This document shows positions 2-953 of a stretch of DNA of 953 nt, piece after piece. The stretch lies in the NCBI RefSeq assembly GCF_003334335.1, contig NZ_QOWQ01000135.1; one strand, 5' to 3'. The notes below the pieces were generated by a model. The model was not told the DNA's origin. It did not search any database and saw only the letters and a program-made list of their open reading frames with translations. Position 1 is the stretch's first letter, and each line of letters opens with the position of its first letter. A program made the translations under genes and the position numbers. The DNA comes from Escherichia coli. Its GTDB lineage: Bacteria > Pseudomonadota > Gammaproteobacteria > Enterobacterales > Enterobacteriaceae.

Positions 2-34
2 CGTCGCCGTCGTCCGCTGGGAGTGAGGTTATGA
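2..34 (+). CDS. W: 3' end of upstream gene (5'-partial), probable gpW-like head-tail joining / head completion protein; last 10 codons only
   Basis: Reading from base 2 gives RRRRPLGVRL followed by TGA at 32-34. This arginine-rich tail resembles the C-terminus of lambda gpW as I recall it (...QRRRGPAGFYV), and W-then-B is the lambda gene order. Only 10 codons are visible and the comparison is from memory, so the call rests mostly on synteny. Confidence 0.45.
   Translation, partial: RRRRPLGVRL
19..28 (+). promoter_or_regulatory. Ribosome-binding site (Shine-Dalgarno) for the portal gene
   Basis: Purine-rich GGGAGTGAGG at 19-28; the GGAG core at 20-23 sits 7 nt upstream of the ATG at 31. It lies inside the 3' end of the upstream gene, consistent with coupled translation. 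Confidence 0.5.
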
Positions 35-953
35 AACGAACGCCTGTCCTGATTGATGTGAACGGCGTTCCGCTTCGGGAGAGCCTCAGCTACACCGGTG
101 GCGGTGCAGGATTTGGCGGGCAAATGGCAGAGTGGTTGCCACCCTCGCAGAGTGCCGATGCGGCCCTGCTGCCCGCGTTGCGTCTGGGGAATGCCCGTGC
201 AGATGATCTGGTGCGCAATAACGGAATAGCGGCCAATGCGGTGGCCCTGCATAAGGATCACATTGTCGGGCATATGTTTCTGATTAGCTACCGTCCGAAC
301 TGGCGCTGGCTGGGGATGCGGGAGACCGCGGCAAAAAGTTTTGTCGATGAGGTGGAGGCGGCCTGGTCAGAATACGCAGAAGGGATGTTTGGTGAGATCG
401 ACGTGGAAGGGAAACGCACGTTTACGGAATTTATCCGTGAAGGTGTGGGCGTTCATGCGTTTAACGGCGAAATCTTTGTGCAGCCGGTCTGGGATACGGA
501 GAGCACGCAACTGTTTCGTACGCGTTTTAAAGCCGTGAGTCCGAAACGGGTGGACACGCCAGGACACGGTATGGGGAACCGTTTTCTGCGGGCCGGTGTG
601 GAGGTCGATCGATATGGCCGTGCCGTCGCGTACCATATTTGTGAGGATGATTTTCCGTTCTCTGGTAGTGGACGATGGGAACGGATCCCGCGTGAACTTC
701 CCACCGGACGTCCGGCCATGCTGCATATTTTCGAGCCGGTGGAGGACGGGCAGACCCGTGGGGCTAATCAGTTTTACAGCGTCATGGAACGGCTGAAGAT
801 GCTCGATTCCCTGCAGGCAACACAGCTTCAGTCGGCCATAGTGAAGGCGATGTATGCAGCGACGATTGAAAGTGAACTTGATACCGAAAAGGCCTTTGAA
901 TATATCGCCGGTGCGCCGCAGGGGCAGAAGGATAATCCGCTTATTAATATTCT
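31..953 (+). CDS. B: Portal protein, lambda gpB family (3'-partial; N-terminal ~307 aa, gene continues past the window)
   Basis: ATG at 31 opens a frame with no stop through base 953 (307 full codons). Translation begins MKRTPVLIDVNGVPLRESLSYTGGGAGFGGQMAEWLPPSQSADAALLPALRLGNARADDLVRNNG... and includes ...FEPVEDGQTRGANQFYSVMERLKMLDSLQATQLQSAIVKAMYAATIESELDT.... These match lambda gpB as I remember it (MKTPTIPTLLGPDGMTSLREYAGYHGGGSGFGGQ...; ...FEPVEDGQTRGANVFYSVMEQMKMLDTLQNTQLQSAIVKAMYAATIESELDT...). The upstream gene stops at 32-34 in another frame, and an SD precedes the ATG. The identification is by recall, not a database search. Confidence 0.94.
   Translation, partial: MKRTPVLIDVNGVPLRESLSYTGGGAGFGGQMAEWLPPSQSADAALLPALRLGNARADDLVRNNGIAANAVALHKDHIVGHMFLISYRPNWRWLGMRETAAKSFVDEVEAAWSEYAEGMFGEIDVEGKRTFTEFIREGVGVHAFNGEIFVQPVWDTESTQLFRTRFKAVSPKRVDTPGHGMGNRFLRAGVEVDRYGRAVAYHICEDDFPFSGSGRWERIPRELPTGRPAMLHIFEPVEDGQTRGANQFYSVMERLKMLDSLQATQLQSAIVKAMYAATIESELDTEKAFEYIAGAPQGQKDNPLINI

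Follow-up and report, generated by a model that had tools for sequence, protein, structure and literature searches.

Which gene fills the 953-base stretch of DNA analysed here (the window), in what kind of genome does it lie, and does the gene stand alone or does the opposite strand carry a second one? According to the evidence presented below, we hold it to be very nearly certain that positions 31–951 are the 5′ 58% of a phage 21-like lambdoid portal gene, most probably lying in an E. coli chromosomal prophage, and that the end of a W-like gene at 2–34 overlaps its start by ATGA.

The plus-strand frame opens with an ATG at position 31 and is stop-free to base 951, giving 307 codons, while the last two bases of the window (952–953) begin codon 308. 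Base shuffling of the window produced an open stretch of at least 307 codons, in any of the six frames, in 4 out of 20,000 trials, and the codon-position GC of the frame (0.65/0.44/0.59) is consistent with that of a coding frame. Additionally, mapping of the coordinates of annotated relatives onto the window placed the portal start of phage 21 and that of an E. coli prophage exactly at position 31. The open frame and its 307-aa translation, assigned to 31–953 in an earlier note on this DNA, therefore stand as described. The portal gene is incomplete in the window. Since full-length relatives (99% identity) have 530 codons, the window covers approximately the N-terminal 58% of it, and the remainder of the gene would be expected to continue intact beyond the 3′ end. 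Neither the codons past 307 nor the end of the W-like gene had been mentioned in the earlier note.

The translation was compared with four independent libraries, which returned E-values from approximately 1e-69 to 1e-118. The NCBIfam equivalog TIGR01539 (portal_lambda) was matched with 396 bits, above its curated cut-off of 172.7, at profile positions 1–270 of 457. The Pfam family PF05136 (Phage_portal_2, “Phage portal protein, lambda family”) was matched at model positions 2–258 of 354 (E-value = 5.2e-69), and the coverage of both profiles is partial solely because the window ends. Among the PHROG families, phrog_21 (“portal protein”) was recovered with an E-value of 2.3e-107. The best solved structure, as searched with phmmer against the PDB, is the lambda Portal protein B (8k38 and six more entries; E-value = 4.7e-117, residues 5–298), and the frame is thereby homologous to a portal whose dodecameric ring (lambda gpB, 12-fold) has been solved. 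Pairwise BLASTP gave 62% identity with lambda gpB (180/292) with a single one-residue gap, which falls inside the 60–70% that had been estimated by eye. These results bear out the reading as a lambda gpB-type portal, and the search against phage portal families that had been proposed as a check on it returned the lambda-type portal family. The frame is thus a member of the lambda portal family, and none of the evidence gathered contradicts the assignment. The 560-residue chain named ‘Portal’ of PDB entry 8vhx also matched, with an E-value of 5.3e-40 over query residues 30–292, which makes it a much more remote representative of this portal lineage.

Within this family, sequence comparison yields a refinement, namely that the nearest characterised relative is gp4 of phage 21 and not lambda gpB. 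Gene 4 of phage 21 (OL657228.1, M81255.1; genus Jouyvirus) is 96.8% identical to the window in DNA over positions 3–953 and its product shares 303 of the 307 residues (99%), against approximately 66% in DNA and 62% in protein for lambda B. The window and phage 21 also agree in where the start codon lies, in the Shine-Dalgarno-like sequence and in the ATGA shared with the gp3 gene upstream. The two portals differ by four substitutions (N22T, A39S, T158S and E298G) in the part compared, which is codons 1–307 of 530. The in-frame base differences number 30, and the fact that 26 of them are synonymous and four are not reveals purifying selection on the portal frame. Overall, 19 phage records match the window DNA at 96.6–97.9%, all of them Escherichia phages, and each of the 18 that are annotated has a portal gene and a W-type adaptor or head-completion gene beneath the match.

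Lambda's own B gene was considered as the identity of the frame and rejected, as blastn aligned it over 801 bases with approximately 66% identity and lambda was absent from the megablast matches, being too diverged for that search to find it. Concerning the alignment of lambda gpB (NP_040583.1; PDB 8k38/8k39 and related) with the window, almost no change is seen around the first stem helix, whereas divergence is evident in the N-terminal 20 or so residues and at the beginning of the clip (window residues 296–307). Some phage records are at variance in their labels. In the Escherichia phages ON470596.1 and ON470627.1 the portal-homologous region is labelled ‘plasmid partitioning protein’, while the sister records ON470604.1 and ON470624.1 carry ‘portal protein B’ there; the former label is probably an annotation error.

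The segment is widespread in the chromosomes of E. coli. It was detected in 1,863 of 5,426 complete genomes at 2,983 matching places, nearly all of them chromosomal, and the copy number per carrier has a median of 2 and reaches 5. All of the matches listed carry the annotation ‘phage portal protein’, and those of full length carry ‘phage head-tail joining protein’ as well; a sample spread down the E. coli ranking showed the same annotation, with the exception of one 110-base remnant. Seven of the 2,983 places are on plasmids instead of chromosomes, for which phage-plasmids and integrated prophages are both possibilities. The best DNA identity (99.6%, five bases differing) is with a prophage of E. 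coli strain S1-CAM-02-A (NZ_CP145707.1), whose portal (WP_032270771.1) matches the window at 305 of 307 residues. Both differences, K4T and N22T, are in the N-terminal segment. An exact (100%) match to the window was absent from the phage and E. coli collections searched. The placement of the window inside a lambdoid phage or prophage genome, as expected beforehand, is supported, and a prophage of E. coli or of a close relative is its most probable source. Regarding the two variable residues, codon 22 (window 94–96) encodes T in the window and N in both phage 21 and the S1-CAM-02-A prophage, and codon 4 (window 40–42) encodes T in the window and K in the closest prophage. Both codons lie in or beside the N-terminal segment that lambda gpB loses on maturation, and T at these two residues is probably neutral.

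The first bases of the window belong to a second morphogenesis gene (Table 1). Read from base 2, its encoded tail differs from the C-terminus of phage 21 gp3 (...CRRRPLGVRL*) by one residue, C to R, and the annotated end of the W-like CDS in both phage 21 and the E. coli prophage maps to window position 34. Hence the portal gene lies directly 3′ of a gpW-type adaptor gene and overlaps it, as in the lambdoid head module, and the identical 4-base overlap is found in phage 21, in the E. coli prophage and in W/B of lambda. The two gene ends mark the surrounding contig as phage or prophage DNA. The ATGA arrangement is typical of translational coupling, and the adaptor and portal genes may well be coupled in this manner. 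Just before the portal start, GGAGTGAGG would act as its Shine-Dalgarno sequence, judging from its position and from the phage 21 record, where a ribosome_binding_site is annotated at the bases mapping to window 20–23 (GGAG).

Table 1. Features of the 953-base window; residue numbers are those of the portal translation unless lambda is named.
Feature	Position	Strand	Description
gpW-like head-tail adaptor gene, 3′ end (phage 21 gene 3)	2–34	+	Last 10 codons RRRRPLGVRL; TGA stop at 32–34
Shine-Dalgarno-like GGAGTGAGG	20–28	+	Putative; just 5′ of the portal ATG, within the W-like coding sequence
ATGA overlap	31–34	+	Portal ATG (31–33) shares bases with the W-like TGA (32–34)
Portal gene, codons 1–307 (phage 21 gp4 type, lambda family)	31–951	+	Runs past the 3′ end of the window
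N-terminal 20 residues	31–90	+	Aligned with the lambda gpB stretch that is annotated as cleaved off during maturation and that the virion structure lacks
Wing domain, first segment	91–768	+	Residues 21–246 (lambda 24–249); predicted from homology
First stem helix	769–858	+	Residues 247–276 (lambda 250–279); within the best-conserved stretch of the alignment; predicted from homology
Clip domain, start	859–951	+	Residues 277–307 (lambda 280 to about 310); predicted from homology
Antisense ORF, 119 aa	367–726	-	In codon register with the portal gene; judged not to be a gene

The C-terminal tail of the adaptor is one of the points where the two types of module differ, being RRRRPLGVRL in the window and RRRGPAGFYV in lambda W (2633–2839 of lambda). 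In lambda, the C-terminal arm of gpW pairs with the clip of gpB by beta-sheet augmentation (PMC10721106), and by analogy the ten W-like residues of the window would lie in the arm that contacts the portal. Because the tails differ at a site of pairing with the clip, co-divergence of the adaptor arm and the portal between the phage 21-type and the lambda-type modules is possible.

Synteny with near-identical relatives extends the picture beyond the window, whose 953 bases end before the terminase and protease genes. In the prophage that is 99.6% identical, the lysis genes are followed by the small terminase, the large terminase, the head-tail joining protein and the portal, and then by an S49 peptidase, the decoration protein, the major capsid protein, FI and FII and the tail genes. 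Phage 21 has the same layout from cos and so has lambda, where B likewise stands after W and before C. Accordingly, the full order Nu1-A-W-portal-C/Nu3-D-E, followed by tail genes, occurs in records 96.8–99.6% identical to the window. The terminase predicted upstream and the protease/scaffold and capsid genes predicted downstream were therefore found in these relatives and in lambda, outside the window's own span. As the window does not reach these neighbours, it is from the relatives that terminase and protease genes would be expected to flank its portal gene.

The S1-CAM-02-A prophage has another feature, approximately 7–10 kb 5′ of its portal (2277–5482 of the locus), where a late region resembling that of Stx phages is located. 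It contains a DNA methyltransferase, a tRNA-Ile/Arg/Arg trio, an unannotated gap of about 970 bp, a SASA-family esterase and a holin. This interval, from the tRNA trio to the esterase, presumably corresponds to the site of stxAB in Stx phages. In this prophage the gap holds ORFs of 40–68 aa alone, and no ORF of toxin-gene size was detected in it.

Whether the portal gene of the window still serves virion assembly has to be weighed against the state of its genome. Many of the lambdoid prophages found in E. coli are defective, and the same gene could be a relic in a decayed, cryptic prophage, truncated or no longer used for virions. The multiple copies per carrier genome (median 2, up to 5) fit such a history, as does the record that retains just a 110-base piece of the segment, and the 3′ 42% of the portal gene, where a truncation could fall, is outside the window. 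The PHROG families point in the same direction. Specifically, phrog_3993 (‘unknown function’, 195 positions) matches portal residues 1–191, window 31–606 on the plus strand (E-value = 3.2e-107), and phrog_27056 (‘unknown function’, 135 positions) matches the N-terminal part of the portal (E-value = 1.6e-27). Both appear to be families built from truncated or split portal calls and not distinct proteins, and PHROGs made of such N-terminal pieces imply that gene calling in phage records has picked up truncated copies. However, none of the 307 codons in the window is a stop, and the start codon is intact, as are the Shine-Dalgarno-like sequence and the overlap with W. The ratio of 26 synonymous to 4 non-synonymous differences from phage 21 is the pattern of a selected gene, and a portal of the full 530 codons is present in the closest relative (99.6%), within a complete-looking morphogenesis module. 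We therefore consider a cryptic relic unlikely, though not negligible, and favour the reading as the 5′ part of an intact phage 21-type portal gene.

The minus strand required separate consideration, since its 119-aa ORF matches phrog_19427, a family of unknown function, from end to end (119/119 positions, E-value = 2.1e-76), and since tblastn located the antisense translation in 29 phage records. On these grounds it could be a real second gene, nested in the portal gene of some phage 21-like prophages. The conservation of the ORF speaks otherwise. In phage 21 the antisense frame is broken by an in-frame stop and the terminal stop codon of the window's ORF is absent, while in lambda the antisense stops are at other positions. 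The substitution pattern is equally adverse, as the 14 base differences from phage 21 within 367–726 alter 12 antisense residues and 1 portal residue. Moreover, because the ORF is in the codon register of the portal gene, it can be closed only by the rare sense codons TTA, CTA and TCA, one of which occurs among the window's 307. When the portal codons were shuffled synonymously, 4,307 of 5,000 shuffles gave an antisense open stretch of equal or greater length, and an antisense opening of 119 aa is therefore what codon usage alone leads one to expect. The phage records matched by tblastn have no gene annotated at the antisense ORF; every annotated feature beneath these matches is the portal, and the matches of the antisense translation mirror the conservation of the portal. 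Promoter-like sites are likewise absent from both strands of the window. A nested gene is thus very improbable, and conservation, substitution pattern and codon register all led us to reject the ORF as a gene. As the ORF failed these three tests, phrog_19427 is most likely a family of antisense miscalls.

Finally, that the portal frame is a chance opening, or encodes a non-portal protein of superficial similarity, is already refuted by the rarity of such a length among the shuffled windows and by the concordance of the four libraries.

The window offered no other features. A search of both strands against Rfam (E-value ≤ 1) gave 0 matches, and scans for sigma-70 promoters (both strands) and for intrinsic terminators gave 0 sites, no more than the shuffles did. 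Direct or inverted repeats were not found in the window. Out of four further ORFs screened against the PHROGs, the 119-aa antisense one was the sole match, while those of 88 aa (minus strand), 65 aa (plus strand) and 66 aa (plus strand) had none.

Homology with lambda gpB permits a domain assignment for the part of the portal encoded in the window (Table 1). The limits were taken from the lambda structure (PMC10721106) and carried over via the gpB alignment, where, starting at window residue 14, the lambda numbering is ahead by three (n+3 against n). What is left of the clip is encoded beyond the window, as are the second stem helix, tunnel loop, second wing segment and crown. Concerning the N-terminus, the lambda record annotates a gpB leader of 22 residues, and the cryo-EM model of lambda gpB is without 23 N-terminal residues (PMC10721106). 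By analogy, the N-terminus of the window's portal may be processed as well, even though the residues at the lambda maturation cleavage, between YA and GY, are not conserved in the window, where SL and SY are aligned with them.

The lambda portal consists of twelve gpB subunits at a single special vertex, and the terminase-DNA complex docks on this portal, through whose channel the DNA is translocated (PMC4669245). In the lambda virion, the 12-fold gpB ring is found with the gpW adaptor ring below it (PMC10721106). Given the 62% identity with lambda gpB and the 99% identity with the phage 21 portal, the product studied here would be expected to share this function, the dodecameric state and the conduction of DNA. 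Twelve copies of it would make up the ring that occupies the single special vertex of the prohead. After packaging, this portal would bind first the gpW adaptor ring and subsequently gpFII and the tail.

The phage 21-type portal gene is thus an already known, ordinary and very common gene in E. coli. The description of the locus as a well-known system holds good: since about a third of the complete E. coli genomes carry the same segment, the gene is well known and not novel, and the portal family has been thoroughly studied in lambda and phage 21, both structurally and for the part it plays in nucleating the prohead, docking the terminase and passing DNA. The value of the present finding lies mostly in annotation, where the window can be labelled with confidence as the 5′ portion of a lambdoid portal gene of phage 21 type together with the last codons of the adaptor gene. 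A practical point follows for the family as a whole, as at least three PHROGs (phrog_3993, phrog_27056 and phrog_19427) are apparently portal fragments or antisense miscalls and not independent proteins.
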